DNA of 64,000 nt from assembly GCA_002269645.1 (NCBI GenBank), contig NIVC01000645.1, positions 231,719 to 295,718 on the forward strand, given 5' to 3'. The notes under the pieces were generated by a model. That model had not been told where the DNA came from. It saw only the letters and a program-made list of their open reading frames with translations, and searched no databases. Shown in pieces: positions 7,812-58,176 of the stretch. How positions within the stretch are numbered: position 1 is the stretch's first letter; each line of letters starts with the position of its first letter. The translations under genes and the position numbers were made by a program. The DNA is from Macrostomum lignano (lineage: Eukaryota).

Positions 7812-10800
7812 ATGTCTGGAGGCACTCCCGTTATCGTCTTGAGTAAGCATTTCTACTTATGACATTATCCTATTGAAATTTTATATTATATACTACATTT
7901 TTTATTCTTTTCCAAAGCACAACTACTTTTAAGTTATTCACAAAAGTCTAAGATTATAAAGAAGAAATAGGATGGGCATTAAAGCAATTAGCTATAAATA
8001 GAATTTGTCATCAAATAGCTGAAGAGCTAATAATCAAATGTATTAACAAGTTAGTTGTTAATTTTTAACAATAAACTTATTTAGAATTTTAAGCCATGCC
8101 CATTAAAATATACAATAAAGTGCAGCATATTCATCAGAATAAAAACATCTGAATCTGTTGCTGTATGCTATGCACTGCTAAAACAAAGGTGCCACCAAAT
8201 TTGTCAACTCTATTGACAAATCCAGTTTACCCCACACTCCAGATCATGTAGGCCTAGTATACGCCCCAAAAATTTGGGCATGCATTGGCCTTGCATGCCA
8301 AAAGTAGGCGTGCACAGTTGGCATGCATCACTTCTATGAAAATACACCTGGCATGCACTTTATAGAATCACACAGAGGTGAGAGGAGTTATTGTAAAGTA
8401 GAAAAAAGGTAAAAAAGTTCATTCTTAAGTGTAAATTTCCCACTTTCTGGGTTTTTAAGCTTGTAATAAGGCATTTAAAGAAATCTTTGCATGTATCAAT
8501 TTTCCATTGTATATAGGCATAGTATTGCCAAAAAGGCAGAAAATTAACCAAATTATCTGTCAAAAATGGTCTATTATGCAATGAAAAGAGGTATAAATTT
8601 ATTCTTACAATATAAGAAAGTCATTTATTGTTGCAACATTGGCAAAGTTTTAAGAATGAAAATGCACTCAATTTTTTTTTGGTGTGCATTTGTACCTATC
8701 AATTTTTGTTTAGGTGTGCACCTAGCATGATCCAGACTATAGAGTTTACCTTACTATGCACTGTTGACAAATTCAGTTTACTTGACAATACATATGCTAT
8801 TTATTAGTATATTTATTTACTATACACTAAAAACTGAAAGACAAAGCCTATTGAGAAGATACATAAAATATAACAAAGGAAGAATGGTTTTCTTATTAAT
8901 TTTTTATAAGCTATTAATACCCACAGATTTTAAACCCTTTGATTTTAAATATTAAATCCCTGAAACTTTTTTTGCACACATTTTGAAATCTGAAGTCCAA
9001 AACCTTGTTAATGGTTAAGATAACTAAAACTTGGGATTAAATTTGAATTAAAATGACTTACTTCACTCAAGAGATGCAATAAAGCATACATGTGCAACTG
9101 CTAGCTGACCTGGCCGATCTGGCCACCATAAATTGTGGTGGACCAGGGGTAAGTCGCTAAAATGCCACCCCAAAGAATATGGACATAGTACTAATTAGAT
9201 GCCAAGGCATTTTGGCCTGATAGGACAGTCAGAGTTACTCCTGCCATTTACATAAAAATTTTAATTTTGCTTTAAGGTTTCCTTCACAGGTAAGTTGCAT
9301 TTTTGGTCAAAAAGTAAGTCGCATGGCCAGTGTAAATCAGGGAGGTTGCGCATATATGTAAAGTGTAATAAAGCATATGTAGCACATAAACCACTGATAG
9401 ATAGTCTCCCCCATTTTTTAAGTAGGAAAGCATCAATGATACTTGACAAATCTTGCTTAAGACATTTTTAGTTTCAATATATCTCAAAAATAAAAAAAAA
9501 CTTGTATGTATCATATGCCATTGCATTATTCCTACTGCTTGAGTAGACACTATAATTAATTTCTATTGGTACTTATAAATTCTCTTAATTAGTTTATTTT
9601 AACTTTTAAACAATAATTCTGGGCCTATAATCTTTCTTGTGTTTATTCTGGAAGAAAATTGATGAATTTTCATTATTTATGCCAGAGTTTTGATGGTGGC
9701 TACACACTTGGTGCAATAGACCAGCTTGATGGTGGCTACACATTTGGTGCAATGGACCAGGTTGATGCTGGCTATGAATTCAGAATAAAAACTAGCAATG
9801 GCATTGTATACATGCATAAATAAAAATGAATGAAATTTTTAAAAGTTACAATTGAAAATGATTTGTGGACAATGGCATCAGATAGTTAATTTACAAAAAA
9901 TCTGCCAATAAAGTCAATTTTTTAATTAAAAGTGCTTATTATTACTAAGAGTATTTTGATTCCTAGTGTTTTATACAGCATTAAAAAACTAACATCAGAG
10001 CTTAAGTTATGTTTGTTATCAAATGAATAAAAAATTCAAATTCCAACATGTATTGTGTTTGCTGCATATTCAACCCTGCACTGCAGTTCCAACCCCATCT
10101 GTCCAACCCCACCCCAATAACTAGATCAAAACACCAAACGCGAGCAAGGTCGCAAAGTTCAACTGACCAACATCCAGTCTGCCAAGACTGTGGCTGATGT
10201 CATTCGTACATGCCTGGGCCCCCAGGCTATGCTCAAAATGCTCATGGACCCCATGGGCGGCATTGTCATGACCAACGATGGCAATGCCATCCTGCGCGAG
10301 ATCACCGTGCAGCACCCGGCCGCCAAGAGCATGATCGAGATCGCCCGCACCCAGGACGAGGAAGTGGGCGACGGCACCACCTCCGTGATCATCCTGGCTG
10401 GGGAGATCCTGGCCGTGTCCACCGCTTTTCTGGAGCAGAGCATCCATCCTACCATTATCATCACCGCCTACAGGCAGGCGCTGGAGGATATGCTCGAGAT
10501 GGTGAGCAGTACTAACTCAAATACTGGCTGGTTTAATGTCACCCCCTGAATCTCAATAATCTCATCCCTGAATCTCAATAATCTCATCCCTGAATCTCAA
10601 ATATCTCACCCCTGAATCTCAACTATCTCACACCTGAATCTCAACTATCTCACCCCTGAATCTCAACAATTACATCCCCGAATCTCAACTATCCCACTCC
10701 TGAATCTCATAAATCTCATTTTAACTATCTCATCCTTGAATCTCAATTATCTCACCCTGAATCTCACAAATCTCATCCCTGAATCTCAACAATCTCACCC

Positions 10801-12213
10801 CTGATTCTTAACTATCTTATCCCTGAATCTCAGCAATCTCACATCAGAATCTGAATTATCTCATCCCTGAATCTCAAAAGTCCCTCCCACCCCTTAATCT
10901 CAACTATCTCATTCCTGAATCTCAGAAATCTCACCCCAGAATCTGAATTATCTCATCCCTGAATCTCAACAGTCCTTCCCACCCCAGAATCTTAACTATC
11001 TCATCCCTGAATCTCAACTTTCTCCTGCCTGAATCTCAGCAATCTCACCCCTGAATCTCAACTATCTCATCCGTGGATCTGAATTATCTCATTCCTGAAT
11101 CTGAGCAATCTCATTCCTGAATCTCATCCCTTAATCTCAACAATCTCGCCCCGAACCCGCAGGCCTCCAGTCGCTACTCCGTAGACGTGGACACCAACGA
11201 CACGGACAAGATGCACGAGCTGATCCGCACCTGCCTCGGCACCCGAGTGCACACCCAGTGGAACCAGGTGGCCTGCCGCATCGCCCTGGACGCGGTGCGC
11301 ACGGTGCACAAGGAGAGGGGGTCGGACGGCCAGGCCCAGGAAATCGACATCAAGCGCTACGCTCGCATTGAGAAAATTCCTGGCGGCAGCATCGAGGACT
11401 CCTGCGTGCTGGACGGCATCATGATCAACAAGGACGTGGTGCACCCGCAGATGCGCCGGCGCATTGCCAATCCGCGCATTGTGCTGCTGGACTGCGACCT
11501 CGAGTACAAGAAAGGCGAGAGCCAGACCAATGTGGAAATCCGCCAGGAGGAGGACTTCACGCGCCTGCTGCAGCTGGAGGAAGAGTACATCAAGACCGTC
11601 TGCCAGGCTGTGCTGGCCGTCAAGCCCGACCTGGTCATCACCGAGAAGGGCGTCAGCGACCTCGCCCAGCACTACCTGGTCAAGGCCGGCGTGTCCGTGC
11701 TGCGCCGCCTGCGCCGCACCGACCAGTGGCGAGTGGCCCGCGCCATCGGGGCCACCATTGTTAACCGGCCTGACGAGCTCAAGGAGGAGGACATTGGCAC
11801 TGGCTGTGGCCTGTTTGAGGTCTGTGAGCTGTCTGTGTGCCTGTCTGTGTGCCTGTCTGTGTGTCTGTCTGTGTGTCTGTCTGTGTGCCTGTCTGTGTGC
11901 CTGTCTGTGTGTCTGTCTGTGTGCCTGTCTGTGAGCTGTCTGTGTGCCTGTCTGTGTGCCTGTCTGTGTGCCTGTCTGTGTGCCTGTCTGTGTGCCTGTC
12001 TGTGTGTCTGTCTGTGTGCCTGTCTGTGAGCTGTCTGTGTGCCTGTCTGTGTGCCTGTCTGTGTGCCTGTCTGTGTGCCTGTCTGTGTGCCTGTCTGTGT
12101 GCCTGTCTGTGTGCCTGTCTGTGCCTGTCTGTGTGCCTGTCTGTGTGTCTGTCTGTCTGTCTGTCCGTGTGCCTGTCTGTCTGTCTGTCTGTCTGTCTGT
12201 CTGCCTGTCTGTA

Positions 12214-12258
<45 letters not shown>

Positions 12259-12293
12259 GCCTGTCTGTATGTCTGTCTTAGTGTCTGTCTTAG

Positions 12294-12368
<75 letters not shown>

Positions 12369-12369
12369 G

Positions 12370-12402
<33 letters not shown>

Positions 12403-13817
12403 GCCCCCAGCTAACCCAGTCCCGCTCCCCACCCGCAGGTGCGCAAGATCGGTGATGAGTACTACTCGTACCTGGTGCAGTGCCGCAACCCGAAGGCCTG
12501 CACCATCGTGCTGCGCGGCCCCAGCAAGGACATCCTGAACGAGATGGACCGCAGCCTCAATGACGCCCTTAACGTTGCCCGCAACATCGTCTTGAAGCCG
12601 AAGCTCTGCCCGGGCGGCGGCGCCTTCGAGATGGCCATCGCCCACGCGGTGTCGGAGAAAGGCAAAGCGCTCACCACGGTGCACCAGGGCCCCTACCGCG
12701 CCCTGGCCGCGGCCCTGGAGGTGATCCCGCGCACCCTCATCCAGAACTGCGGCGCCAACGTCATCAGGACTTTGACGGCGCTGAGGGCGAAGCACGCGGG
12801 CACGGAGCCGGAGGACTGGATGTGGGGCGTGGACGGCGAGACGGGCAAACTGCGCCACATGAAGGCTGACGGCATCTGGGAGCCGCTCAGCGTTAAAAAT
12901 CAGGTGCTCAAGACCGCCACTGAGGTGAGGAGCTGCGGGATTTTACATTATTTTTTTGTGCTGAAATGTGCACCGGGTCAATATTCTCCAGCCTTTAAGA
13001 CCGGCTACAATCCTCACCTGTTCACCTGAGAATCCTCACCTGTTCACCTGAGAATCCTCACCTGTTCACCTGAGAATCCTCACCTGTTCACCTGAGAATC
13101 CTCACCTGTTCACCTTAGAGTCCCAACCTGTTCACCTGAAAATCCTCACCTGTTCACCTTAGAATCCTCACCTGTTCACTTGAAAATCCTCATCTGTTCA
13201 CCTGAGAATCCTCACCTGTTCACCTGAGAATCCTCACCTGTTCATCTGAGAATCCCACCTGTTCACCTTAGAATCCTCACCTGTTCACCTTAGAATCCTC
13301 ACCTGTTCACCTGAGAATCCCCACCTGTTCACTTGAGAATCCTCACCTGTTCACTTGAGAATCCTCACCTGTTCACTTGAGAATCCTCACCTGTTCACCT
13401 TAGAAATCCCCACCTGTTAACTTTAGAATCCCCACCTGTTCACCTTAGAATCCCCAGCTGTTCAGCTTAGAATCCCCACCTGTTCACCTTAAAATCCTCA
13501 CCTGTTCAGCTTAGAATCCCCACCTGTTCACCTTAAAATCCCAGCCCGTTCACCTTAAAATCCTCACCTGTTCAACTTAGAATCCCACCTGTTCACCTTA
13601 TAAATCCCCACCTGTTCACCTTAGAATCCTCACCTGTTCACCTTATAAGCCTCACCTGTTCTCAAAACCGCCATGTCCCTCGCAGACGGCCATCCTTCTG
13701 CTCCGCATTGACGACATCGTGTCGGGCACGAAGAAGGGCGGCGTTGAGGGCGCCGCCGCCGCGGCCAAAGCTGCCGCTAACGAAGCTGCGCAGCCAGCTG
13801 CCGGAGGCGACGAGTGA
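7812..13817 (+). CDS. CCT3: T-complex protein 1 subunit gamma (chaperonin CCT/TRiC), 560 aa
   Basis: Exons 7812-7842, 10125-10501, 11163-11819, 12439-12924 and 13686-13817 total 1683 nt in frame. Motifs: MSGGTPVIVLNQNTKREQGRKVQ, RTCLGPQAMLKML, TNDGNAILREI, EVGDGTTSV, EYKKGESQT, KIGDEYY, TAILLLRIDDIVSG. Confidence 0.98.
10545..11150. repeat. ~23-bp degenerate minisatellite (ctgaatctcaactatctcatccc), CCT3 intron 2
   Basis: Tandem array filling the intron. Confidence 0.93.
11820..12402. repeat. 12-bp (tgtgtgcctgtc) grading into (TGTC)n, CCT3 intron 3
   Basis: The array begins at the donor GT. Confidence 0.95.
13009..13660. repeat. 22-bp minisatellite (aatcctcacctgttcacctgag), CCT3 intron 4
   Basis: Tandem array. 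Confidence 0.95.
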
Positions 13818-21590: not shown

Positions 21591-22192
21591 GCCATTCTTA
21601 TTGCAGTTTTAATAAAAGTACATTTAGTCGAAAAAACGCTTTGGAATTAAAAATCAGTACGCAGAAAACAAACTGCTGTTTTAAGGGTTGAGCTCTGGTT
21701 GGTAAAACTGCTATTTAACACGGAGTTCTGTATTTCAAATGCGGAATAGTTTGCACATGCTACAGCTAAGGCACGCGAAACACAGCGATGAAATTAATGG
21801 GATCAGCAGAGTCCGTATTGCGTCTAAAAGGGACTAAATTTAGCGGCAATGACAGAGACAGTGAAGCAAGGGAAAGCAAATAAGAAATTTAGAAGCAAAT
21901 AAGCCTTCTAAAAAACTAACTACACAGAATCGGGATTGAGAAGCAATGCAGTTTTTAAAAGCGGGATAAAGCAAACGTTCTTCCTTTGGAGACCTCAGCA
22001 CACGGACTAAATGAATGATGTTGCATATTCACGACTCCATGCTTGATAACTGTGATTTTATCGATTTTATCAAAAACTTTAATAGTATACGCTTTGAAAA
22101 ATTCTTCTCTTATTAATACCAAAAAGTCATGCAGCTTACCTTAGCCACTCACCATCCAGCAACAGACTCCGGTCAACTTCGGTAACTAACAA

Positions 22193-22646
22193 TTAGCCAA
22201 AGCCCTCACCAACAATGCCAAAGATTTTGATCTCGCAGATGGTAAGCACGTCGCCTGCTCGCGTCTGAACTCGCAGTCTCCGGCCTCCAGCACCGCAGGA
22301 AACGTTAAACACGGACTCGGGAGTTGATGTCGAGTAGCTGGCGCACTCGGTGCCGTCCATCAGCAGCTGGAAGTTACCCAGCCTGTGCGGGCAGCAGTCG
22401 GCCCGATTCCACAGGGAGACGAAGTCGACTCGAACCGTGACGTCGAACTGAGCCTCCCACCAGCCATTGTTGTCGTCTGTGGCGGTGCAGCTCCCGCCGT
22501 TCCAGTTCCGATTTGTGTTGCCATCGATTGCTTTGCCGCAGACACTGCCGCTGCTCCAGTCCGAGGACTGCGAACAGGAATTGGCTGACAGCTGGGCTGA
22601 TGCAGCTGAGAGGCTGGGCAGCAGCAGGGCTGCTAGAGTCTGCAAC
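22193..22646 (-). CDS. F-type lectin (fucolectin/FTP domain) exon with signal-peptide-like N-terminus; first exon not located
   Basis: KAIDGNTNRNWNGGSCTAT, WWEAQF, NRADCCPHRLGNF and LTICEIKIFG are typical of the FTP domain. The ORF 'start' is a TTG next to acceptors (actcag|G, ttgcag|A). A phase-1 donor at 22209 could splice to a candidate exon at 21765-21647. Confidence 0.85.
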
Positions 22647-23425
22647 CTGAGTTGTATAGTAAGGGTTTATCAGCAGTGACCTACAGAAATTGTAGATGGT
22701 AGTAGTTAAATTTTAGTAGCTTTTACAGGATGCTACACTTCAAAATGATGCAAATTCGGTGAGTCTTATCAAACTGACGGGAAAAATATTGAGTGGCTTA
22801 GGGCCATAGTCTATAGATAGTAATGTGTTATTGGGTGGTGTAGGCCATAGACTACAGAAAATAATCGGTTAGGTTTACAAAACCGAGTTTCTTGTTCCTT
22901 CTGTTCATGGGACCGGTATAATACGTCAAGAAGAAATTTCTTTTCTACAGTAAATGAGAATGAACAGCGTCAGAACACGTCATTTGATGTTCATTCGTCT
23001 GTTCAGAAGCGTCCTCGCATGACAGCAAGATCGACTGTATGCTTGACTTGACCTAAGCTCTTCTAAAAGAAGTGAGATATGAGGGTCTGGAGTTAGATTG
23101 GGAAGTGGATGTGCTATCCCATGGAAGGGCCGTGATGAAATGCCTCAGTGCACATTTTCTAGTCAACTAGCGTGACAAGTTATCCACTGATATCGAGAAC
23201 AGACAGTTTGCATGGATGAGCCTCAAATTATAAGCCCAAGAGACCGCAAGCAAGGTTTATATTCGTATGAGTCGTATGAGTCAATTAACCAATGCTTAGA
23301 AACTGCGGCGTCAAAATACAACTCCCAAGACAAAAAAGAGCTCTAAGCCATTAGGAGCTTGGAGGAAATGTATCGAAGCATCAGTTTACACCATAGACAG
23401 ATTGAGTTGTTGAAAGCCAGATAAG

Positions 23426-24017
23426 CAGGATGACTCATCCCTGCTCACCCGCGCGTGAAGTGTATTGGCTGCCTGGAGGGAATAAACCGGATGACTCATC
23501 CGCCCAAATATATTTTAGCACACTAAAGCACGTGACTGCGCACGCATACGGTGCGTGGCATCTGACCTTAAGTCACGCCACTGTTGCCTGGCAGGATTGC
23601 CTTATTTGAAAGTTGGCCTTGAAGCACGCCTCTCTTGCATGACTCTGAGGCATGAAACTCGCGTGACTTTTGGGGGTCGCTCGGCTATAAATACGGAGCA
23701 CCTGGGAGCTGTTTTTCCTCAGACGCGTTCCCCGGAGGACCGGAGTTTCCTCCCTGCCTCCGCCTGCAAGGAGCTCCACTTCTCTCATTTCAGGCTTACA
23801 AGTTTTCAGGTTCGAGCAGCAATTTTAGGAACTTTGCCGATCAACTGTCGAGACATTTTCAGATTTGCCTTGCTCCGAGCGACTTCGTCATTTTCTTTCA
23901 GGTTACGGAAAGACAACTCAACCGACAAGTCGAGTCCGCAAACCAAGGTGGCAGCAACCTTACCAAGTCAAAGGCTAACGTTTTAGGTTTCTTTTAGGCA
24001 AATCGATAGGTAGTACA
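23426..24017 (+). mobile_element. LTR fragment homologous to the 3' two-thirds of the solo LTR at 29259-30108
   Basis: Alignable by eye from gcaggatgactcatc through ggctataaatacggagca to ggcaaatcgatagg. The 5' end and TSD were not identified. Confidence 0.7.
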
Positions 24018-24837: not shown

Positions 24838-25827
24838 TGAAATAGAATGGGTTTTCTCGGGGTTTAGGCGCTTAAGATTACCTTAAGACTCGAGCCTCTT
24901 CAGTGGGAAATTCTCTCAACTCTCAGTAGCGTAGGTAGTGCTGCCACCAGTTCCTTCAGGTCTCGGCCTTCGATGAGGTGAGCTTCCCGTCGGAACGAAA
25001 TAAACAAGTCAACGAACTCAGCACAGCGTGCAGATTTGCAGATTAATGAACAAGGCGTCCTGATCAGCAGATCCCCGCCGGGCTCAGGGGTGGCTGGGAA
25101 GGTAGTGTTAGCCTCCCTTAGGCTTGGGCTTTAGTGGGGTCTCAGTCAGACCAGTACAAACGGATTCAGTACGCAAAGGGCACTTAGTTAGACACTGACG
25201 CACACGGGATCTTAGTGAATTCTCCGCAGATAAGAAGCCAATCCTTGACGGAAACAAGGGGAGAGGGGTCCTATTTATAGCCGGGAAACACCCACGCACA
25301 AGACCTCGTGACTTGTTCTATTTTTAGAACTGACGTCACTTGAGGTCTCGGGGCAGGGTCTCAGTGCGCGCAAGACCTCGTGACTCGTTCTATTTTTAGA
25401 ACTGACGTCACTTGAGGTCTCCGGCCAGAGTACACGCGGCTGTGACTCAGTTGCTATTTTTAGCAACATGAGTCACTCCTCTCCTTAGAGAAGGGAGGGT
25501 TCCGAAAGCACGTGATTCTCCCGGTAAACAGGGCCAACGAGTGCAGTAAACATGTTTACTGCACTTTAGGACTCGAAGAACGCAGAGTCTGTCATGTGAC
25601 TTGCTCACATGACAGAGGAAAACGGGACGGGAACGAAACAGAGACAGCCCACAGCAGATAAGCTAAGGGCTGAGAACAGAGACGCAGAAGGGCAGAACAG
25701 GCCAAGGGCAGCAACAGACGGGCCAAGGGGGGCGGGAAGCTGACCAGCGGCAGACAGCAACCCAGGGCGAGGGCGAGGGAGACTGCTGACAAGTGGGATG
25801 CCTAACATCAACTAGTGGATCACTACA
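24838..25827 (-). mobile_element. LTR-like element of a related family (about 1 kb)
   Basis: On minus it begins TGTAGTGA, the same 8 nt as the solo LTR, and carries ggctataaata at 25282-25272. A candidate TSD CAGG flanks 24838/25827. An alternative left end (TGTTA) lies at 24805. Confidence 0.55.
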
Positions 25828-26189: not shown

Positions 26190-26396
26190 TTGGGCAGATG
26201 TGCAACCGACAGCTCAGCCGCAGCTATTGCGTGGCGCATTTGAAGGCTGCGTACGGCTGTTCAGTCCGCAATGACTGGGGCCCGGGGTCGCCACCCTCAC
26301 CCTCAATTACCCCCAGCTAATGCTGGCACCCATTTTACAGCTGGGTAAACTGAAGCAATGCAGTGTTAAGTGTCTTGCTCAAGGACACAAATTGTT
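26190..26396 (-). mobile_element. 5'-truncated copy of the same SINE
   Basis: Near-identical to 36408-36600 (gcagatgtgcaaccgacagctcagccgcagc...gacacaaattgtt). The tRNA head is missing. Confidence 0.8.
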
Positions 26397-28189
26397 CACG
26401 CCTTGTTTCAGACAAGAGGTTTCCGTTTCTGTCCAGTTCTTCACTATTTGTCTAGTCCAATTCTACCTGTTCGCTACTGAATTCTATCTTTCAACTGTGT
26501 GGCTGAACTTGTGCAACCAATAGCAACTAAGTTAACGAGAAACTAGCACAGATCCCAATACCCGGCACTGTACCCGGCAGGATCTGCTGACAGAGCGTGC
26601 ACCGGTGCGAGCTGTCAAATCTGCACGGAGTGCTGAGTTCCCGCGTCTCGTTTATTTGCTCAATCTGGAGTCTCCCTCATGGAAGGCCAAGCCCCGAGTG
26701 AGCTGGTGGCACCTACGCTACGAGTAACGATTTCTAAGAAACGGGTCTCTCTAGAAGGCGCCGATTAGGGCTCAGGAGATCTACCGAGTCATTCCAAGCG
26801 AGAAGCCTGTACAACATTGGTGGCAACGGCCGGAGCCTGAGACTGGCCATTCAACGACCTGGGAACCACAAGCACTTCAGAAGAGTAGATCAAATTGACG
26901 CTAGCGTAAACAATGAGAGGCCCTGAGCCCGCTTCATCATTTCAGCCAGCCAGCCTCACCCTGGCCCGGGATCAACAACGGCTGCGGACCCCCTCCCCCC
27001 ACCCCCTGGCAATGGGATCAAGCCGGCCGGGAGACAACAGGGAGCTGGAGAGAGGGCCCAGACCCCTCCGGTAGATGAGCAGAAAAACAAACGTACCGTT
27101 GACGGTGAAGAACTAAGAGTACTGAGAGACAGAAACTTTGAAAATGGGAGAACTGCATATCGTAACTCAACCAATGCGGTAAACCCCCCCTCTGCCACCC
27201 CTGCGAGGGGAGAGAGGATCCCCCTAGCAACTAGCTAGTTTATCGCTTTTGGGCTACACTTTATCAGGGGCTGCGTCCCAACTCAAAAACATTGCGAGTG
27301 GGTACTGTGGAAAGACACACCAAGGATGATATATAACAACTATATTATAGTTGGGACGACTTATACGAGCCTAAGGCTACTAAAAATGCGTTTATGAGAC
27401 AATGTGCTTGTGCATATGGTTTTGTCATAGACAATGATTAATTTTAGTCTCTCGTGGCCACTCGTCAAAAATTAATCATTCTCTACCTCAAAACCGAAAC
27501 CTATATATACAATCTATACCAGTATTATCATTATTATCATCAGTTATTCCAAGCTGAGCTGGCTATCCCAGCTGCACCCAAGTGATGGAGCGAATCACGA
27601 GCCGAGCCACAATAGCCGGAATCCGCCTACCTTTCTGCGATGAGCATTCTGTGGAGACAATAAAAGCCATGAGTCTTCACATGCTTGCATCCTTAGTTAG
27701 TGCTTATCATGGATCTCGAGTGACTCATTCTAATGTGTTCATGTGAATCGACTTTCACACTGAAGGCATTCTCGTTTGTTAGTAGTTTCTACTGTTCATG
27801 ACTCCGTTGTATTTTCCCGTGATGTTCACGTTAGTGCTGTTAGTATTGGAATTTTGCTAATGAGGAGTTGATTGCCTAGTGATTGGCGGAACATGTCGCT
27901 TCTATAATAATATGAACAACTTTTAGTTATTACAGTTCCTCACGTTTGCTGTGTATATCCTTCATGTCATTTATAGCGTTATACAGTCGAATAGGAGGGA
28001 TCGGGAATCTCCAGGACTCATTTGACAACAGCGCAACGCTTCACACTACTGAAAAGTTTTTACTGAAATTATTTTTCACTACTGCATTTGATTCTATGGC
28101 TTTGCCTATATTCACTCAGTGGCCCATGTGGAGAATATAGGATCTATGATGACTCAAAATAAATAGCACCCAAGTGGTCGAACTTCTAA

Positions 28190-28680: not shown

Positions 28681-29258
28681 GGTTTACACCATGACCCACT
28701 GCATGGGATGTCAAATATTTCACCGAATCATCTTACCATAGCAGTTTTATAATTTTCAAGCGCGAAGCCATTCTTTCTGCCGATTTCTATAATAAGTTAA
28801 ATTTTACTCCCATCCTAAAAGCGCTCAAATCTTGCACGAAGCAGGCAGGAATTTTCAAGAAATAGGAATTAGAAAGTGGATGGCTTTGGATTGGCTAATC
28901 CAGATCGCATCCAACAGCAATGAGTGAGTGATCATTTTACGCACAACTGACAGGCAAGGTCTGGAGCGCCATCCTATTTGGAAAAATATCCTGCTTGAAT
29001 CTGAAGCTAAACCAAATTCTACAGCCTCAAATAAATGTTATGCAATCGAATTTTATCTTCAATCTTTAGACCATCACTAGCAATCTTCGCCCCCCCGATG
29101 GGGGACATCTAGATAGAATTTCTGTTCTCTACAAGTAACATAAAGACAGCAAAATAAAGCCTTCACAAATACAACAGACATTCCCTCTAAACATAAAACA
29201 TCCCAAGACGGCAAGCATCCCCCAAATAGCAAGCACCCCCTCTAAATACAATAGCAAG

Positions 29259-30108
29259 TGTAGTGACTGGCTGCTAACTGGCTATTCAGCAGCATTCACT
29301 AGCTTCCCTTAAGAGTGCTGTGATCCGCTGCACAGTATCTCAGTCCACCTGAGCTAGTGAGAGAGTTACCCTGTGCTGGGCCTAAGTGTTTACTGCCCGA
29401 TGACTCATCGCCTGAGCGGGCGCGGGCAGCCACACTCAATGTCTTCCCACTCGCGCTGAGGAGGCGTAGCAGGATGACTCATCACCTGAGCGGAGTGTAA
29501 GGGCTGCCTAGAGGGAGTAAACAGGATGACTCATCCGCCCACGGTTCTATTTTTAGCACAGACTAAGCACGTGACTGTGCACGCACACTGTGCGTGGCCA
29601 CTGACCTTGAGTCACGCCACTGCTGCGTGACAGGGTTGCCTTATTTGGAAGTTGGCCTTGGATCACGCGTCGTTCGCATGATTCCAATGCCCAAATAAGG
29701 AAGTTTCACGCGCTCACCGCATGAAACTCACGTGACTTTTGGGGGTCCGCTCGGCTATAAATACGGAGCATCTGCGAGCCATTTTTCTCCAGACTGCGTC
29801 GTCTCGCGGAGCATTGTGGCTAACTCGTGAAGCCTCTGCCTCCGAGCTCTCCTCTCTCATTTCAGGTTTTTCAGGTTTTCAGGTCCGAGCAGCATTCAAC
29901 TAAGACGATTGACTGTCGAGACATTTTCCAGATTTGGCCTTTGCTCCGAGTGTCGTCGTTAATTTTATTTCAGGTTACGGATAGACAACTCTGCCGATGC
30001 GTCGAGTCCGCACACCAAGGTGGCAGCAACCCTACCAAGTCAAGGCTAACGTTTTAGGTTCATTTTCAGGCAAATCGATAGGACCGAAGCAAAGGGCGGA
30101 TCTTTACA
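29259..30108 (+). mobile_element. Solo LTR (850 bp), TGTA...TACA termini, 4-bp TSD CAAG
   Basis: Left junction atagCAAG|TGTAGTGAC; right junction tctttACA|CAAGcacc. Internal TATAAATA at 29756. It interrupts a ccccagatagcaagcat-type repeat that resumes on the right. Its 3' part is homologous to 23426-24012. Confidence 0.8.
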
Positions 30109-30109
30109 C

Positions 30110-30600
30110 AAGCACCCCAAATACAATAGCAAGAAGCACCTCCCAGATAGCAAGCAACACCCAGATAGCAACCCCTCCCCCCAAGATAGCATGTACCCCC
30201 CTCCTCCAAGAGCAAGCCTCTTTGCCTCCCCAATATCAAGCATCCCCAGACAGCATGCAAGCGTCCCCCAGATAGCAAGAATCCCCCAGATAGCAAGCAA
30301 CCCCAGATAGCAAGCATCCCCCAGATAGCAAGGATCCCCCGATAGCAAGCATCCCCCAGATAGCAAGCATCCCCCAGACAGCAAGCATCCCCCGATAGCA
30401 AGCATCCCCCAGATAGCAAGCAGCCCTGGATACAAAGAATCCTTATAGATAGCTATAGCAACCCCCTCTCAGATAGCAAGTACCCTCCACCCCAAGCATC
30501 ATCCAATAGCAAGTTACCCCTGATTGCAAGCATCCTTCCGATAGCAAGCATTCCCCTGATAGCAATAATCTATCCTTAAATAGCAAGCATCCACCAAGAC
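30110..30600. repeat. 18-19-bp minisatellite (ccccagatagcaagcat)
   Basis: Tandem array; units also occur at 29200-29258, left of the solo LTR. Confidence 0.9.
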
Positions 30601-46752: not shown

Positions 46753-47486
46753 GAACAAGTGAAATCAATTAATTTATTATTATCTTAAAACGGAACTCTT
46801 TAAATAGTGACAATTTGCACTGGCTCTGACACGTTCTGCTGCTCAGAGGCTTGAGACTACGGAGAACCCCCCCCCAGTGAGAAGGCACAGAAACCATATT
46901 TTTCCCCGTCATTCGAATTTTCATTATCAAAAGTTGCTTCAACCCAATTCTGATATTTCCTAGCCGACCGAGTGCTCCCAGCAGTGCTGGAGCGCCGCCC
47001 ACTCACCGCAGCCTGGCTGCTCTGTGTAACAGAAATGCCACGGGAGGGGGGGGGAGAGACGAGACGGGATCAGAGCTCAAGACACTCCCTAACTCAGTCC
47101 TCGCCTATTGATTTTCGTCTTGATCAGCGATTTGCGGCTGTTCCCAGCTCACCGCGCTTGACAACCACCCCCTCCTTCCCAGTCCTGTGCCCCCGGCATT
47201 CATGGAGTTTCCAACTGCAGCAGTGCTGGGTAGGCGGGAGCCCACAGCCCCGCACGCGGGAATCAATATATATCGATTCTGCGTTCCCAGCGCTCCCTGT
47301 CTTGCACAAATCGATTCCAATATTTGATATTTTCCCAACTGGAAATATTCGCGCTGAGAAGCTTGGGCTAGAAGACACATACACAATTTTTTAAATAAAA
47401 TTCCTGATATTTTCCGCGCAAAAAAACAGCGAAATGCCGCAACAGCCCCAGCTCGCACTGGAACGCTAGACCGCAGTCAAACTCTG

Positions 47487-47500
47487 GTTACCATGGCAAC
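47487..47500. promoter_or_regulatory. RFX X-box (GTTACCATGGCAAC) overlapping the SLC17 start codon
   Basis: Full match to the GTTRCCATGGYAAC consensus. The central ATG (47493-47495) is the first codon of the transporter ORF. Confidence 0.5.
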
Positions 47501-50500
47501 CGAGGAGGCCAAGAAAGAATCTTCCTCGCCGCCGCCAGACGAAGGCGACGACAAGGCGAGACTGATGGACCAGCTGGACTCCAAGTGCGTCATCCGCAAG
47601 CGCTACGTTGTCTGCCTCCTGTGCTTCCTCGGCATGGTGATCATCCACTCCATGCGGGTGAACATCGCCATCACGGTCGTCACCATCCTGGACAAGGCGC
47701 CGCACGAGAAGGTCGGCAGCAGCAAGCGGGCGCAGGAGCTGCCGGACGTCGACTGGACGCCCACCATGGTCGGCGTGCTGCACTCCGTCTTCTACGTCGG
47801 CTTCCTGATCACCCAGGTGCCCGGCGGTTACCTAGCAACGAAACTGCCGACCAACCGGTGGGCCTGGCATGACATTCATTTGCTCACCTGCACCACTCGC
47901 TCGCGTCTTCGCTCAGCTGTTGCAAGCATGCACGGGCTTGTGCGATGAGTCTGTCTAAGCCCTCCCCAAATCTCCATCTGCTTCTCCCTCTCCATCTCCC
48001 TCTCCCTCTCCCTCTCCCTCTCCCTCTCCCTCTCCCTCTCCCTCTCCCTCTCCCTCTCCCTCTCCCTCTCCCTCTCCCTCTCCCTCTCCCTCTCTCTCTC
48101 CCTCTCCCTCTCCCTCTTCCTTCCTCTCCCTCTCCCTCTACATCTCTCTCCCCTCTACCTCCTCCCTCTCCCTTCTCCCTCTCCCTCTCCTTCTCCTTCT
48201 CTCTCTTCTCCCTCTACCTCTCCCTCTACCCCTCTCTCTGTCTGTCTGTCCCTCTCAGTTTCCTACTCCCTTTCTTTCTTCCTCCCCCTCTCTCTCCCTC
48301 TCCCTCTCCCTCTTCCTCCCTCTCCCTCTCCCTCTACATCTCTCTCCCCTCTACCTCCTCCCTCTCCCTTCTCCCTCTCCCTCTCCTTCTCCTTCTCTCT
48401 CTTCTCCCTCTACCTCTCCCTCTACCCCTCTCTCTGTCTGTCTGTCCCTCTCAGTTTCCTACTCCCTCTCTTTCTTCCTCCCTCTCTCTCTCTCCCTCTT
48501 GAACAGTCTCGTTCCCCTTGTCTCCCAATCCATCCCTATATTGCACTCGTAAGCAGCAGTAAGTCAAGAATGCTTCGCCATCTCCCTGAGCACAGATCGC
48601 CTTAAAGCAGACATGCGCAGTGCAAGGATTTGCCGTCGCCTATCGATTGGCAAATTCTTTAGAATCTGAGCTCCTATAACCCGTGAACTCGAAACTCAAG
48701 CCCACGAGTAGGTTTTATCGAGCGTCAGTACAGAGCTGTGTGTGCAGGTAGACTTGGCTTCAGTGGCTTTTCGAGCTCTCTAGGCGGGGGAAAGACGGAC
48801 AGGTACGGACGGGGGCACTCACGGGAGCAGTCTCAACTGATATGGGTGCCTAATCCGTTGAGACGGATCAAGCATTCGTGCACTTTTGTCAATCCCTGAT
48901 CTCGGTAATCCGCCGTCCCCCCATCCGCGATAAACAGGATATTCGGGCTGTGCATCTGCCTGTCCTGCGCACTGAACCTCCTGCTGCCCACCGCCATCGC
49001 CAATGTGGGCTTCATCTTCACCTGCTCTGTCAGGGTTGTGCAGGGACTGCTGGAGGTGAGGCTGCGGCTGTGTCAGCAAATGCGTCAGCGAATGTGTCAG
49101 CGAATGTGTCAGCGAATGTGTCAGCGAATGTGTCAGCGAATGCGTCAGCAAATGCGTCAGCGAATGTGTCAGCGAATGTGTCAGCGAATGTGTCAGCGAA
49201 TGTGTCAGCGAATGCGTCAGCAAATGCGTCAGCGAATGTGTCAGCAAATGCGTCAGCGAATGTGTCAGCGAATGTGTCAGCGAATGTGTCAAATATACGT
49301 CAGCAAAAATATCAGTGGGCCAGCAAATGTCAGTGAATCCGTTAGTGGATGTATAAGACAATGTGTCAGGCAATGTGTGAGCTAGCGTATCCGTGAATGT
49401 GTCAGTGAATCTATCAGGAAATGTGTCAGCTAGTGTATCCGTAAATGTGTCAGTGAATCTATCAGGGAATGTGTCAGCTAGTGTATCCGTGAATGTGTCA
49501 GTGAATCTATCAGGGAATGTGTCAGCTAGTGTATCCGTAAATGTGTCAGTGAATCTATCAGGGAATGTGTCAGCTAGTGTATCCGTGAATGTATCAGTGA
49601 ATCTATCAGGGAATGTGTCAGCTAGTGTATCCGTGAATGTATCAGTGAATCTATCAGGGAATGTGTCAGCTAGTGTATCCGTGAATGTGTCAGTGAATCT
49701 ATCAGGCAAGGTGTCAGCTAGTGTAACCGTGAATGTGTCATTGAATCTATCAGGGAATGTGTCAGCAAGTGTATCCATGAATGTGTCAGTGAATCTATCA
49801 GGGAATGTGTCAGCTAGTGTAACCGTGAATGTGTCAGTGAATCTATCAGGGAATGTGTCAGCTAGTTCACCTACACAAACATGAACAACCTAAATGAACA
49901 ACCTCGCAGGGAGCCGTGATCCCCACCATGTACAAAATCGTGAACGACTGGTCGCCGAGAATGCAGCGCAGCTCCTTCGCGTCGTTCTGCATCACCGGTG
50001 AGCACTGCAACGCTTTTGAATTGTAAAATCATCAATATTTTGATATTAGCAATATATAAGCACTCTTTGCTACTGTCAGTAGGCGGAAACGCATCAGAGA
50101 ATTCAGATGGATCCAAGGATCCCAAACTGATTCGAATCTGAAATAATGTTTCAAAAATGCACAAACGACCTGGGCTCGCGCACCCCGCAGGCATGTACGC
50201 CGGCGCCATCATCGGGTTTCCCCTGGACGGCATGATCACCCACTACGCCAACTGGCAGTACATGTTCTACATCCACGCCGTCTTCGGCTTCGTCTGGTTC
50301 TTTTTTTGGTTCCTGTTCGTCTACGAGCGTCCCGAGTTCGATCCCTCGGTAAAGGACGACGAGAAAAAGCTGATCATGGCGGGCAGAGACCAGGTGGTCG
50401 AGCTGGACAAGGTGCCTTGGAAAGCAATTTTTACCAGCTTGCCCGTGTGGGCGGTGATGGTGTGCCACTTCGTGCGCAGCTGGATGTTCTTCTTCCTACT

Positions 50501-52031: not shown

Positions 52032-54719
52032 GAATTGATACGAGTAACAATCAATCAAAAACAGTCTCACAGGGTCATATAATCTGCGTATATTTTGTAC
52101 TTGCATAAACCGGTACGAGTATTCGACGATGATGATGAAAGTTCCTTGTCAACATCAATAGAGCTGGACAGCATTAAATATTTTATTTTTCAAGATATTC
52201 TTTACACTGCATGCTGGTGAAATGGGAATCAGGGTTGCACCTTATTTGACCCGTTAGAAAACTTCATCTAATCGTCATTCGGATGTCAAATTATTTTTTT
52301 CTTCGTCTATTTCTGCCGCTGGCATATCCATGCAACTTAAAAGTACAAAACTTAAAAATTATTTAACTCTAGGTATTTTTCATTTGGAGATTAGTGCTTG
52401 TGCACTAATCTGTAGTTTTGCGTCGTGAGCTTTTGTGATAACATTGCTGCAGATTCGATATTTCTATTGCCTCTTTATTTGCCACTGTCCGATTGTTGCC
52501 AGTTAATTACCAATACATACTACTTACTGGCTTGACAAGACTGCTGCAGGCCTGGAGTCCTTTAATTGAAAATTTAATGTCTATGGCAGTCCTCCGGACC
52601 TCCTCTCCCTCAGGACCGTCGCAAACTCCCGTCAGTCCCCTACTAGCACCGTTGCAACCCTCCCTCAGTCCCTCAGGACCGTCACTACCCTCCCTCACTC
52701 TCTCAGGACTGTCGCTACCCTCCCTCACTCTCTCAGGACCGTCGCTACCCTCCCTCACTCTCTCAGGACCGTCGCTACCCTCCCTCACTCTCTCAAGACT
52801 GTCGCTACCCTCCCTCAGTCTCTCAAGACTGTCGCTAACCTCCCGTCAGTCCCTGAGTACCGTCGCTACCCTCCTATCCCCTCTCTCAGTGCTGTCGCTC
52901 GCCTCTCAAGCGACAACTCCATACTAATAGTTGACAAAAACTCCACCCAGCTCTTAAGCACTGGGGTCTTGGCGGGCGCTTTCTCCCAATCGATTTTCTG
53001 TCCCAAACGCAGCTACTCTGCCCCCTCTACTTCATCACCTGGCGGACCGAGAGACAATGGAATGCGGCGACTATGCGAGAGGAATTTCTCAACTTCCTTT
53101 CAGAAATGAAGAGTTTCGGGAAATTATTTTTAGCAAAAATCTTTAAAGTCCTGCCCTACCAGAGTTAAAAAAGGAACTTTTTTCTCCCCTACCATCGGTC
53201 AGGCTGAGTTGTCAACGGCAACAGGGAATTTTTCTTGGCGACTGAAAAGCTGGGAGTTAAAGGTCTAGGACTGGACTCCGCTCTCAGCTTCCCAGATCCC
53301 AGATTTCTCAGCACGAGGCTATAATGCAGACTCAACGGGACCTCTTCCAGCAACTGTTGCCATCTTTGAGCATACAAGGTGCTCAGCTAACTCAAGCGAG
53401 TCTGCAGCTGAGCAGGAGCTCAGTGTCAACGGAATTGCGCGCAGAAGTCGAGAAGCAACAACTATTGCGGGCAGCATTGGTGGTTGCCACAGTGACGGAG
53501 GAGGGTAACGCTATTAATATCTTTAGATTTTAGAGTCATAAATTGCATGAAAATCGGGATTGAGCCGTTTTTTTCTGAAATCAATCTCATATGCACGGGC
53601 AACTCATTTTCGGTATATAGGATTGTTGGGGAGGCAACAAAAAAGGAAATATATATTTTTCTGAATAAACGACTTTTATGAACGACTATAGCTCTGAAAG
53701 CCAGCCATCTTGCCTAGGATATCAGCACCCCTGTGAGCTTTGGCTCAAAGCATCTCTGAGTAGCTCATGAGGCACAGCATTTTAGCAAGTCCCCCCATGA
53801 GCCTTGAAATCTCAGCAATTCCCCATGAGCACTGAGCCACAGCATTTCAGCGACCCCCCTCATGAACCTTGACATTTCCCTCATAAGTCTTATGGTTAAA
53901 CCGTGACCCAAATCCTAACCCGGCTGAGAGTCACAGCATTTCAGTAATTCCCCCATGAGCCTTGAGTCTTGACGTCCTAGCAATTCTTCTGTGAGACTTT
54001 TATGGCTGACAGGGCTAGCCATATCCATATGCGATCTCTTAACACGATTTTTCTAGACAGCCATCAAAAGATAATTCAAGTAAAAACTCCATAAACTTGT
54101 GTTGAGGGTTAGGATCTACAATAATAATAATTAGTTTATTATTATATTATGTAAGCTCTTATATTCCTATAATGCAAACCAGAAAGGATAGGATTATCAC
54201 TTATTACGAGTATAGCATAGTGCGAGTACGAGTATCAGTAATACGAAGCTAGATTAATCTGGGGGGGAATAGATCAAGTGTACACTTGCACAAATGTACA
54301 CTGGCGCCACGGGGGCAGGGGTAGGACCAAAGAGGCGCGAATAAGGAAAGACAAGGAAAACAATGTACATTTAACTGTACAGCCAAGGCTATTTCTTTGC
54401 TTACTCACTCAACGTTTCTGTCCGCGCGCCGCCGCGTGACTCAACCCCCCCTCACCCCCAAAAAGCCATTTCAACTATAGCAGCCTCCACCCCTCCACAC
54501 TAGGCCCTTGCTTATCTATTTCACACTTCCTGACTCGCAGGTCACGATTTGTTAAACAGTCTCAACTAGTTCAACTTTATTTATCACAAAACAACCACGA
54601 TACACTTAAACGTTCAAAAGCGAGACTGTGAACGAAACTACAGACAGACCTACGAGGCACGTTTCTAAATACTGGTTTAAATTAACCGAAGGCGGCAGCC
54701 GGAACCAGAGCCATCCACA

Positions 54720-57700
54720 ATGCGTCTTACTCGTCGAAAAGTACTATTATCGCTTCTACTTCTAATCGGAGCTGCGCTGTTGTTTTTCTATTACGCATTT
54801 GCGCACAGCGGCTTAACAACGGAGCCGCGCCTGTCGGCCAGGGATTTTCACAACTATCATGGCGAAGACCGCCAGCAGCATGGTGGACGGGGCCAACAGG
54901 AGGACGAGAGCTTCGAGTCAATTCGTCAGCAGCTGGACTTGCTGGAGCACGACAGCGGATTGAAGCAGCTGGCTGGCTTAGCCGCAGGACTGGCCACCGC
55001 CCCGGTGCCGACTCGCCGCCAGCCGCAGGTGGTGCACCGATTCGCTGACGGGGCAACCATCAGAGTGGCCGGCGAGTCCGCTGCGGCTGCATCGCTGAAG
55101 CTCGACTCCAACTCCAAGCTGGAAGACGCGGAGGAGGTCTGGGCTACCGCGCTAGGAGGCGGCCCTTCCAGCCTGCTGACCGCCAGCTGCCACCCCTACA
55201 GGCGCTTCGGGCCGAAGGGCGACGGCGGCTGGTCCGTCTGTCTGGCCGGACCGTTCCGGCCGAGTCCCGGCCACTGCCTGTCCGTGTCGTTCGGCGTTGA
55301 CAAGGTGTGGAGCTACGATGACCAGGTGAGCGGGAGTGTCGATATGGATTTGTTGGACGATTTTTAAGCCCTCTTAGTGTCGTTTGAGGGTTGAGGCTCT
55401 CAAAATCGTTCGACGCCTCTCAAACTCATTCGGAACCTCTCAAAATAATTAGGCGCCTCTCAAAATCATTCGGAACCTCTCAAACTCACTCGGAGCAGCC
55501 TCTCAAACTCATTCGGCGCCTCTCAAAATCATTTGAAACCTCTCAAAATCATTTGAAACCTCTCAAAATCATTTGAAACCTCTCAAAATCATTTGAAACC
55601 TCTCAAAATCATTCTGATCCTCTCAAAATCATTAGGCGCCTTTTGAAATCATTTATTTAGCACATTCGGCACCTCTGAAAAGAACTTTAGCACTTCTCAA
55701 AAACAGTTTCTTGAAAATGATTTTGACCCCTCTGAAAATGATTTCAACCCCTCTGAAAATGATTTCCCTCGCAGGTCGCCCAGCAGCTGCAGTGCCGCAG
55801 CCTGGCCTTCGACCCCAGCCTCACCCACCTGGGCAATCACACTCGAACTCTCAGCGGAGTGAAGTTCTACCGCATCGGTCTCTACTCCAAGCCCGGGCTC
55901 CTGCCCGGCACCAACTGGACTGTGGACACCCTCGAGCACCTGCTGGACACCCTAGCCGGCGGTCCAGACACCGTCGTGGACATCCTGAAGCTGGACATCG
56001 AAGGCGCGGAGTGGCCGGCGCTGACGGCCGCGCTGGACTCGAACTGCCTGCAGCGGCGGGTCCGCCAGCTGCTGGTGGAGCTGCACAGCAGGGAGTCCCG
56101 GCCGCGCCCCAACGAGGACAGCGAGGTGTACGACTACGCTGCCTACCTGAATGTGCTGGGCCGCCTGCGGCACTCCGGCTTCCAGCTGTGGCGAGTGGAG
56201 CCAAACTCAGCGGACGGCAGCTGGTTCTACAGCCGCGCTGGGCTGCGAAAGCGGCGCCTCTGCTGCTACAATGCCTACTTCATCAACACCAGATTCCTGC
56301 CCAGTGTCAACAGCAGCCAGGCTCTGATGGAGGACCAGCTGATGAGGGATTTGCACTCGGTGAGGCTGCGGCTGCCTCTGAAGCTGCTGCCGGATGCCAG
56401 ACAGCTGGCCGCCGCCGCAGCCAAGTCGCCAGCGATCGCCGCCGAGCTGCTGTACTTCGACAGCTTGATGCCGGCGGTGCACGCCGACTGTCCCGACTGG
56501 AGGCGGCTGGGCCCGGCCACCGGGGACGGCGGCTACGACGTCTGCCTGACCCCGCCGTTCGGGCTCAGCAGGGACAGCTGCCTTGTGCTGTCCTTTGGCA
56601 TCGGAGACCAGTTTGGCTTCGAAGATGCGCTGGCAGGTTGGTGGCGTCCTGATGGGCCTGACTCCTACTCACCCATCCCTGACCCTGTCATCCCATCCCT
56701 GTCTTCCCATCCCTGTCTTCCCATCCCTGTCTTCCCATCCCTGTCTTCCCATCCCTGTCTTCCCATCCCTGTCTTCCCATCCCTGTCTTCCCATCCCTGT
56801 CTTCCCATCCCTGTCTTCCCATCCCTGTCTTCCCATCCTTGTTTTCCCATCCCTGTCTTCCCATCCCTGTCTTTCCATCCCTGTCTTCCCATCCCTGTTT
56901 TCCCATCCCTGTCTTCCCATCCCTGTCTTCCCATCCCTGTTTTCCCGTCCCCGCCTTCCCATCCTGTCTTCCCATTCCGCATCTTCCCATCCGTGTCTTC
57001 CCATCCCCGCCTTCACATTCCTGTCTTCCCATCCCTGTCTTCCCATCCCCGTCTTCCCATCCCCGTCTTCCCATCCCTGTCTTCCCATCCCTGTCTTCCC
57101 ATTCCTGTCTTCCCACCCCTATCTTCCCATTCCCCATCTTCCCATTCCCCATCTTCTCATTCCCGCCTTCACATTCCTGTCTTCCATTCCTCCTGTATAT
57201 CTTCCTGATGGGAAGGCAGTCAGGGATGGGATGGGAAGGCAGATCAGAGATGGGAAGGCAGATCAGAGATGGGAAGGCACATCAGAGATGGGAAGGCAGA
57301 TTAGAGATGGGAAGGCACATCAGAGATGGGAAGGCAGATTAGAGATGGGAAGGCAGATCAGAGATGGGAAGGCAGATCAGAGATGGGAAGGCACATCAGA
57401 GATGGGAAGTCACATCAGAGATGGGAAGGCACATCAGAGATGGGAAGGCACATCAGAGATGGGAAGGCAGATCAGAGATGGGAAGGCACATCAGAGATGG
57501 GAAGGCACATCAGAGATGGGAAGGCAGATCAGAGATGGGAAGGCAGATCAGGGATGGGAAGGTAGGTCAGGGATGGGAAGGCAGATCAGGGATGGGAAGG
57601 CAGATCAGAGATGGGAAGGCAGATCAGAGATGGGAAGGCAGATCAGAGATGGGAATGCAGATCAGATTGTCTCGAACCCGCAGGCCGCGAGTTCGGCTGC

Positions 57701-58176
57701 CGAGTCCGCATGTTCGACCCGTCGCTCACGCAGCTGGGCGAGCACAAGCGCGGCCCGAGGCAGTGGCTGCACCTGGTGGGCCTCGGCGGCGAGGACTCCG
57801 TGCGCAAGGACACGGGCTGGGCGGTGAACAGCCTGCAGACCATTCTCAGCCGCTACGGTCACTCTGGCGACATTGTCGACTTGCTGAAGATCGACATCGA
57901 ATTCGATGAATGGGAGGCCTTGGAGGCGGCTGCGAAGGACGGCTCGCTGAGCCGGGTCAGGCAGCTGATTCTGGAGACTCACACGATGGAGCTGCGAGAC
58001 GAGAGCACGGGGGGCAGCGACTACCTGAGATTTGCTCGGTGTGGCTCGGTCTCTACAGGCTGGGATTTCGGCAGTGGCGCAGCAGGGAGAACGGCAGGAC
58101 TCACTTTCTAGGGCCCAGCGGCCGGAGCAGGGCCTGTTGCCATGAGCACTCGCTCATTAACATCAACTTTATGTAG
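54720..58176 (+). CDS. Type-II membrane-anchored methyltransferase with two tandem METTL24/FkbM-like (Methyltransf_22) domains; 1-nt frameshift near the C-terminus in this sequence
   Basis: Exons 54720-55325, 55775-56636 and 57684-58176. N-terminal TM: KVLLSLLLLIGAALLFFYYAFA. Domain 1: GDGGWSVC..SFGV..FDPS..LKLDIEGAEW..QLLVELH..CCYNAYFIN. Domain 2: GDGGYDVC..SFGI..FDPS..LKIDIEFDEW..QLILETH..CCHEHSLIN. The exon sum of 1961 nt is one short of a multiple of 3; the frame changes at about 58038. Confidence 0.85.
55395..55770. repeat. ~20-bp repeat (ctctcaaaatcatttgaaac) plus complementary gaaaatgattt units, methyltransferase intron 1
   Basis: Direct inspection. Confidence 0.88.
56685..57665. repeat. 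14-bp array (ccatccctgtcttc, 56685-57185) followed by partly complementary 19-bp array (gatgggaaggcagatcaga, 57205-57665), methyltransferase intron 2
   Basis: Direct inspection; cttcccatc is the reverse complement of gatgggaag. Confidence 0.95.

Follow-up and report, generated by a model that had tools for sequence, protein, structure and literature searches.

Stress-responsive LTRs have been described in the flatworm Macrostomum lignano, and signal- or regeneration-linked retroelements in several other animals; what follows on cited sources refers to the excerpts of them that were available. For M. lignano, 137 LTR families have been catalogued, and heat-shock elements (HSEs) are necessary for heat induction of one LTR (PMC12801592). 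Two families whose LTR has one HSE showed no induction, so carrying a motif is no proof of it (PMC12801592). Mouse VL30 LTRs use AP-1/Ets sites and require MEK activity (PMC5923290). Gypsy-1_Hg and Gypsy-2_Hg rise about 54- and 26-fold in Holothuria glaberrima regeneration (PMC3575433), and transposable elements (TEs), including Gypsy elements, rise in Hydra regeneration (PMC13465017).

Here we describe an 850-bp solo LTR in a 64-kb stretch of DNA (the window), which carries AP-1, MEF2, CArG, CACGTG E-box, and Forkhead-type sites. It shares host (judged by its homologues), superfamily, and stress-site logic with the M. lignano Ty3/Mdg4 HSE LTRs (Mlig-id115, Mag; id36 and id55, CsRN1; id38, Gmr1/Osvaldo), for which HSEs and heat are the only motif and stimulus analyzed, and regeneration is not covered, in the excerpts available (PMC12801592). 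The window family has the site types listed above and no canonical three-unit HSE. Four words of the window LTR are absent from the available supplements of that study, which give sequence for only 6 of the 137 families, and the window family is probably among the 137. The VL30 LTR (U3 class I, AP-1/Ets/Elk) is likewise a retroelement U3 with AP-1 sites and subclass-specific site sets (PMC5923290), and zebrafish regeneration enhancers likewise combine AP-1 sites and E-boxes, some of them TE derived (10.1101/2022.05.06.490982). However, VL30 is a mammalian gammaretrovirus-like ERV with demonstrated MAPK-dependent function, and the zebrafish enhancers are of SINE/MITE origin, use CAGCTG/CACCTG E-boxes, and have been validated in transgenic animals, whereas the window family has CACGTG E-boxes and a predicted activity. 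For VL30, the excerpts available mention neither MEF2 sites nor paired CArG boxes, both of which the window LTR has (PMC5923290). The sea cucumber and Hydra reports give Gypsy expression without a cis-mechanism in the portions available (PMC3575433, PMC13465017), whereas the window family offers a candidate cis-mechanism read from its sequence. Avian and deltaretroviral LTR enhancers also have CArG/SRF and AP-1 sites, according to the excerpt available, but these are vertebrate retroviruses of unrelated sequence (PMC7601775). A literature search, with subscription journals mostly outside its range, found no description of the AP-1/MEF2/CArG site set in flatworm LTRs. Signal-responsive LTRs are thus already known; what we add is evidence of selection on the element, a toolkit of sites shuffled across a clade, and an allele test at a lectin gene.

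A young solo LTR beside an F-type lectin gene

The insertion and its neighborhood comprise the following features:
29255 to 29258, plus strand: left copy of the 4-bp target-site duplication CAAG (flank comparison, empty site)
29259 to 30108, plus strand: solo LTR of a Ty3/Gypsy retrotransposon family, 850 bp, TGTA...TACA (termini, target-site duplication, empty site in G000:C801)
30109 to 30112, plus strand: right copy of CAAG (flank comparison, empty site)
28737 to 28771, minus strand: coding exon 1 of an F-type lectin gene (FTP/F5-F8 type C), head-to-head with the LTR, its ATG 488 bp away
22193 to 22646, minus strand: lectin coding exon 2, 6 kb from exon 1
23424 to 24010, plus strand: older, truncated, decayed copy of the window LTR family in lectin intron 1 (77% identity)
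24838 to 25827, minus strand: sister-family solo LTR with target-site duplication CAGG, three MEF2, two AP-1, and two CRE sites, and E-box and Forkhead sites, in lectin intron 1

The stretch from 29259 to 30108 is a solo LTR, as originally called, of a young, recently active Ty3/Gypsy family. It has TG...CA termini and is flanked by the CAAG duplication. The locus is present in three genomic copies: the window contig (C645) and C3812 carry the LTR, and C801 is an empty site with a single CAAG. The same LTR sequence is found as paired LTRs in full-length elements elsewhere; at the window locus the internal domain is absent, and neither a primer-binding site (PBS) nor a polypurine tract (PPT) was found at the LTR copy.

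Searching the host genome with the window LTR gave 261 candidates, of which the 40 scored are 94 to 100% identical. Several matches are paired about 8.8 kb apart, marking full-length elements. These partners are about 9.6 kb long, with a PBS, TGGTGGCAGCGG, after the 5' LTR, which we take to match tRNA-Leu, and a PPT, GGACGGGGAGAG, before the 3' LTR. One of them (L033) encodes a gag with a zinc knuckle and an open 1716-aa pol in the order protease-RT-RNase H-integrase, the protease matches being weak (below the Pfam cut-off, E about 0.002). The best solved (PDB) relatives of the family's RT are Ty3 RT, and the domain order, the Ty3-type RT, and the positions of PBS and PPT are those of Ty3/Gypsy elements. 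A third, proline-rich ORF (384 aa stop to stop, L033 7282-8436) is present in several copies and had no Pfam or Atlas matches. The LTR pairs of three elements are only 2, 7, and 1 substitutions apart, a sign of recent movement of the family. Its closest RT homologues are labeled Macrostomum lignano (78-79%; the next is at 47%), as is the 95% homologue of the neighboring lectin, so the host is almost certainly this flatworm, in keeping with the proposed regenerative host. Six of 30 close copies (L013, L014, L021, L025, L026, and L030) have a PPT before and a PBS after the LTR, i.e., tandem elements with a common LTR. Sense-strand AATAAA/ATTAAA is absent from the window LTR (29259-30108) and the sister types L104, L132, L134, L144, and L148; an AATAAA stands just upstream of the PPT in the full-length element (L033 8761-8766).

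An exact family 17-mer occurs 163 times in the genome (control, 0), a lower bound on LTR copies in an assembly that is partly redundant. Genome-wide, the AP-1 word GATGACTCATC occurs 2,114 times (control, 383) and the CArG word CCAAATAAGG 1,220 times (control, 565); 163 LTRs with three of the former and two of the latter apiece would supply roughly a quarter of each total. Of the idea that the family spreads regeneration enhancers, the spreading is supported by these at least 163 LTRs; a host role of the spread copies so far is not.

The enhancer side of the LTR is nearest the lectin promoter, and three LTRs of its clade lie in or beside the lectin gene, two of them in the first intron. The LTR-less C801 copy of the gene has an annotated product with an identical first exon. 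The lectin gene therefore has its own promoter and can do without the LTR, which may nevertheless add an effect. With one locus copy lacking the LTR, the locus offers a natural allele test; 20 fixed differences in 22140-22645 separate the LTR-bearing copies (C645, C3812) from the LTR-less C801. In runs X2, X5, and X9, the lectin-exon contigs are of the LTR-bearing haplotype type; at 92.7% identity the LTR-less copy falls below the 95% contig-match threshold, so the alleles are not comparable in these contigs. The lectin gene id does not appear in the heat-stress table in the available part of PMC12801592, where ids may differ. The F-type lectin domain family is large in this genome (728 candidates, 150 of them scored).

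Sites of the LTR and their conservation

Site retention was scored in two sets of copies. Among 30 close loci, 25 have all nine sites, 3 lack one, and 2 were unscored (TATA anchor missing). The second set adds 40 copies, drawn from the 17-mer matches by their order along the genome; the 17-mer of CArG box 1, on which they were ascertained, was left out of the substitution test below, and each other site is kept in 32 to 38 of the 38 to 40 scorable copies. Motif names are standard consensus definitions; we take GTAAACA to be Forkhead-type and the E-box context CACGTGAC to be USF/TFEB-like. Retention in the list refers to the second set, and 7/7 to diverged representatives:
29387 to 29393, minus strand: Forkhead-type site GTAAACA, kept in 37/38
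29399 to 29409, unstranded: AP-1 site 1, GATGACTCATC, kept in 36/38
29473 to 29483, unstranded: AP-1 site 2, GATGACTCATC, in a repeat with site 1, kept in 36/38
29517 to 29523, plus strand: second Forkhead-type GTAAACA, immediately upstream of AP-1 site 3, kept in 34/38
29525 to 29535, unstranded: AP-1 site 3, GATGACTCATC, kept in 36/38
29547 to 29556, unstranded: MEF2 consensus CTATTTTTAG, kept in 35/39
29568 to 29573, unstranded: E-box CACGTG in the context CACGTGAC, kept in 32/39
29608 to 29614, unstranded: AP-1 site 4, TGAGTCA, kept in 32/40
29639 to 29648, unstranded: CArG box 1, followed by AAGT, invariant in 7/7
29691 to 29700, unstranded: CArG box 2, reverse complement of box 1 and 52 bases downstream, followed by AAGT, kept in 36/40
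29729 to 29734, unstranded: second E-box CACGTG, kept in 33/40
29756 to 29763, plus strand: TATA box TATAAATA (TATAAAT at 29756), invariant in 7/7, kept in 38/40
30019 to 30027, plus strand: PBS-like word GGTGGCAGC in the 3' part, common to LTRs of the wider clade

Every motif of the original prediction was found in its place; the GTAAACA sites had been overlooked. The 64-kb window has no CArG match besides these two boxes. When the 497 bases before the TATA box were put through 10,000 dinucleotide shuffles, four AP-1 sites were never reached, two CArG boxes once, one MEF2 site 31 times, and two E-boxes 157 times, and no shuffle combined AP-1, MEF2, and CArG sites. Together with the conservation masks described below, these shuffles reject a chance origin of the motifs. 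AP-1 sites 1 and 2 lie within a 21-base repeat of 95% identity and hence likely arose by one internal duplication, not independently, so a count of four overstates the independent origins.

Measured against known enhancer types, the LTR has the two conserved CC(A/T)6GG boxes of a serum response element and the AP-1 component (four sites) of a regeneration-responsive enhancer. In the c-fos serum response element an ETS site stands beside the CArG box; here, an ETS-like GGAAGT overlaps the final GG of both boxes and is conserved, a geometry unlike the c-fos arrangement. The EGR motif marks the acoel type of regeneration-responsive enhancer. The window LTR has no EGR and no CRE site, and its conserved E-boxes are CACGTG rather than a CAGCTG/CACCTG cluster (there is a single CACCTG at 29348 and another at 29483). 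To call the enhancer grammar "complete" was therefore an overstatement, and the proposed link to EGR is without sequence basis in this LTR. We also considered and rejected a heat-shock reading: the nGAAnnTTCnnGAAn triple unit is absent, though present in a control LTR (L158). In the 3' part of the LTR (29849-30070), there are several polypyrimidine-TTTCAG/G words that resemble splice acceptors, within blocks conserved as well as the enhancer sites; they could be cis- or trans-splice acceptors.

The expectation that the motifs are conserved among copies was upheld. In seven representatives of 73 to 89% identity, the fraction of positions that match the window copy is 0.918 within motifs versus 0.819 in the rest of the U3; shifted masks do as well in 2 of 338 cases and random masks in 88 of 20,000. 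The CArG boxes are the most conserved sites, and their 52-base spacing is constant while the spacer diverges. The substitution test used 76 insertions (97 loci reduced by unique left flank), with three decayed window-type copies (L037-L039) excluded from the conservation tests. Shared substitutions, present in at least two copies and mostly inherited via replicating lineages, number 12 over the 74 motif bases and 162 over the remaining 281 (ratio 0.28, p=4e-7), whereas singletons, mostly later changes, number 28 versus 140 (ratio 0.76, p=0.11, nonsignificant); these p-values are approximate, since copies are related, which overstates their independence, and since assembly errors occur among the singletons. 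The depletion of shared substitutions persists for A/T and G/C non-CpG positions separately (A/T-only non-CpG ratio, 0.15).

Shared substitutions avoid the motifs and private ones do not significantly do so, which shows purifying selection on the replicating element and not on inserted copies. On this reading, the motif sites would matter for the replication of the element. No host-level constraint on inserted copies shows in the singleton ratio, and, in agreement, the older copy in the lectin intron (23424-24010) has lost MEF2, one AP-1 site, and both CArG boxes.

Sister LTR types in the host clade

We sampled 40 RT/integrase loci from top HMM hits, 24 with a usable LTR and 16 without a usable LTR pair. 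In the RT tree, the window family and three other LTR types form a host-specific clade (support, 100/97). The integrase lies downstream of the RT in the window family, presumably unlike the true Gmr1 order. Although the four clade LTR types do not align over the enhancer, the sister types reuse the same site types in shuffled order: MEF2 and CACGTG occur in 4/4, AP-1 and CArG in 3/4, order and number vary, and one sister type adds two CREs. MEF2 matches in L136, L140, L146, and L150 were dropped from this four-type count as AT-rich chance matches (expected, 0.19-0.63). In comparison, 13 LTRs from outside the wider clade (4,264 bases) have two AP-1 sites, no MEF2, no CArG, and one E-box; these are shorter (156-858 bases) and a nonrandom sample, from top HMM hits.

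Two types, L132/L134/L144 and L097/L138/L148, have nearly identical RT, but their LTRs, only about 72% alike in the first 150 bases, carry different site sets. The enhancer seems to turn over fast while its repertoire of site types persists; a swap of enhancers could also account for the difference. The sister solo LTR in the lectin intron (24838-25827) is present on C645 only among the three locus copies, being absent from the two sister loci, and is very young, the best 40 of 925 candidates being 98 to 100% identical. In it, a MEF2-CRE unit is tandemly duplicated, and MEF2 stands between two AP-1 sites.

The PBS-like word GGTGGCAGC followed by a CTACC-type word, 90 to 300 bases inside the 3' end, is found in 12/12 LTRs of the wider clade and 0/14 LTRs outside it. 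The bearers include the window LTR, L104, L132, L134, L136, L138, L140, L144, L146, L148, and L150. The word persists even at 51% RT identity, and some LTRs of the wider clade have extra full PBS copies.

What the sites may respond to

Factor families cognate to the sites are present in the host, whose genome encodes MEF2-like (several genes) and SRF-like MADS domains and Jun-like, Fos/ATF3-like, and CREB-like bZIPs; we take these subfamily labels from characteristic signatures. AP-1, SRF, and MEF2 are established integrators of MAPK/JNK, Rho/actin, and calcium signals. We consider it probable that the motifs are the element's own promoter-enhancer, predicted to respond to MAPK/JNK and calcium-type signals in growth, stress, and probably injury. 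Jun/Fos, SRF, and MEF2 would bind the LTR sites and integrate the three kinds of signal at the U3, with Forkhead and CACGTG-binding factors as further inputs. The TATA box would set the start, transcription presumably beginning about 30 bases downstream of it, and induction may aid copying of the element when cells are activated. Wounding triggers these pathways in many animals, so injury induction of the LTR is plausible, and a role of the family in wounding or regeneration is a hypothesis that the site set suggests. Its far-reaching form, that a clade-wide, reshuffled AP-1/MEF2/SRF/Forkhead wound sensor fires in regeneration to give access to the stem cells that rebuild the germline, and places one lectin allele under injury control, we regard as doubtful. 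Contigs from seven runs (eight mappings) cover the LTR family, as they do other repeats; as contigs they convey neither level nor strand nor start, and the runs are not labeled by condition.

The same sites invite other interpretations. CCAAATAAGG and CTATTTTTAG are classical muscle-gene sites, and MEF2 with SRF also marks muscle and neuronal modules; the LTR could accordingly be a tissue enhancer of muscle or neurons, constitutive through MEF2 and SRF and amplified by AP-1, with an injury response incidental or absent. MEF2 in all four clade types and the several MEF2-like genes of the host fit this, but four AP-1 sites with optimal flanks are retained, the E-boxes are not of the myogenic type, and a promoter active in somatic muscle only would presumably bring the element no heritable gain, so we think it unlikely. 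The two conserved GTAAACA and two CACGTGAC sites, which we take to be targets of FoxO and TFEB/USF-type factors, could with AP-1 instead sense starvation or general stress rather than wounding, and sister LTRs have up to three upstream Forkhead sites and TCATGTGA/TCACATGA words. That the CArG boxes are the most conserved sites and the E-boxes among the least retained (32/39 and 33/40) makes this distinctly unlikely.

It is very unlikely, in our judgment, that the window insertion has been co-opted as an injury-responsive lectin enhancer and that the family generally seeds host regeneration enhancers. TE-derived regeneration enhancers are known in zebrafish, in the excerpts available (10.1101/2022.05.06.490982), the LTR turns its enhancer side toward the lectin promoter at 488 bp from the ATG, three clade LTRs are in or beside this gene, and the window copy retains all sites; yet intact motifs are expected in a young copy, and this one is missing from one of three locus copies, where an annotated lectin protein shares the first exon. 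Moreover, the motifs show no significant shortage of singletons, the older copy in the intron is decayed, and the heat-inducible M. lignano LTRs yielded only two solo LTRs near mildly induced genes, in the excerpts available (PMC12801592). A structural role is conceivable for the CArG-like 10-mers: instead of being SRF sites, they may owe their conservation to an RNA or DNA hairpin in the U3, of which they would form the arms. They are exact reverse complements, folding predicts that they pair with a probability near 1 (z = -2.95 relative to 200 shuffles), and of 53 distinct natural variants, 46 preserve full pairing. However, complementarity does not extend beyond the 10-mer, many subfamilies break the predicted inner stem without compensating for it, the arms show no compensatory change among the 45 of 53 variants listed, and the sister LTR L132 has one CArG box only, which differs in sequence. 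The end of complementarity at the 10-mer, the lost inner stem, and the kept 52-base spacing (about five helical turns) favor protein binding, and a hairpin is highly improbable.

If the promoter-enhancer that we prefer is injury inducible, it would supply a cis-mechanism for the repeated, unexplained rise of Gypsy elements in regeneration; if not, it would be an ordinary LTR promoter with well-chosen sites. Selection on the element would in effect have optimized a compact AP-1/SRF/MEF2 readout, usable as a wound reporter. The host flatworm is accessible to transgenesis, a heat-shock LTR has already been reporter tested there, and the lectin locus with and without the insertion gives a direct, allele-resolved test of whether an LTR rewires host genes.

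Elsewhere in the window (10121-13029, 960-1802, 47358-47948, and 54681-57909), we take the genes to be a CCT3-like chaperonin gene, a coiled-coil ciliary-type gene, an MFS-transporter-like exon, and a methyltransferase-like gene. A high-copy, SINE-like 200-bp repeat lies at 26191-26397, and minisatellites are very dense.
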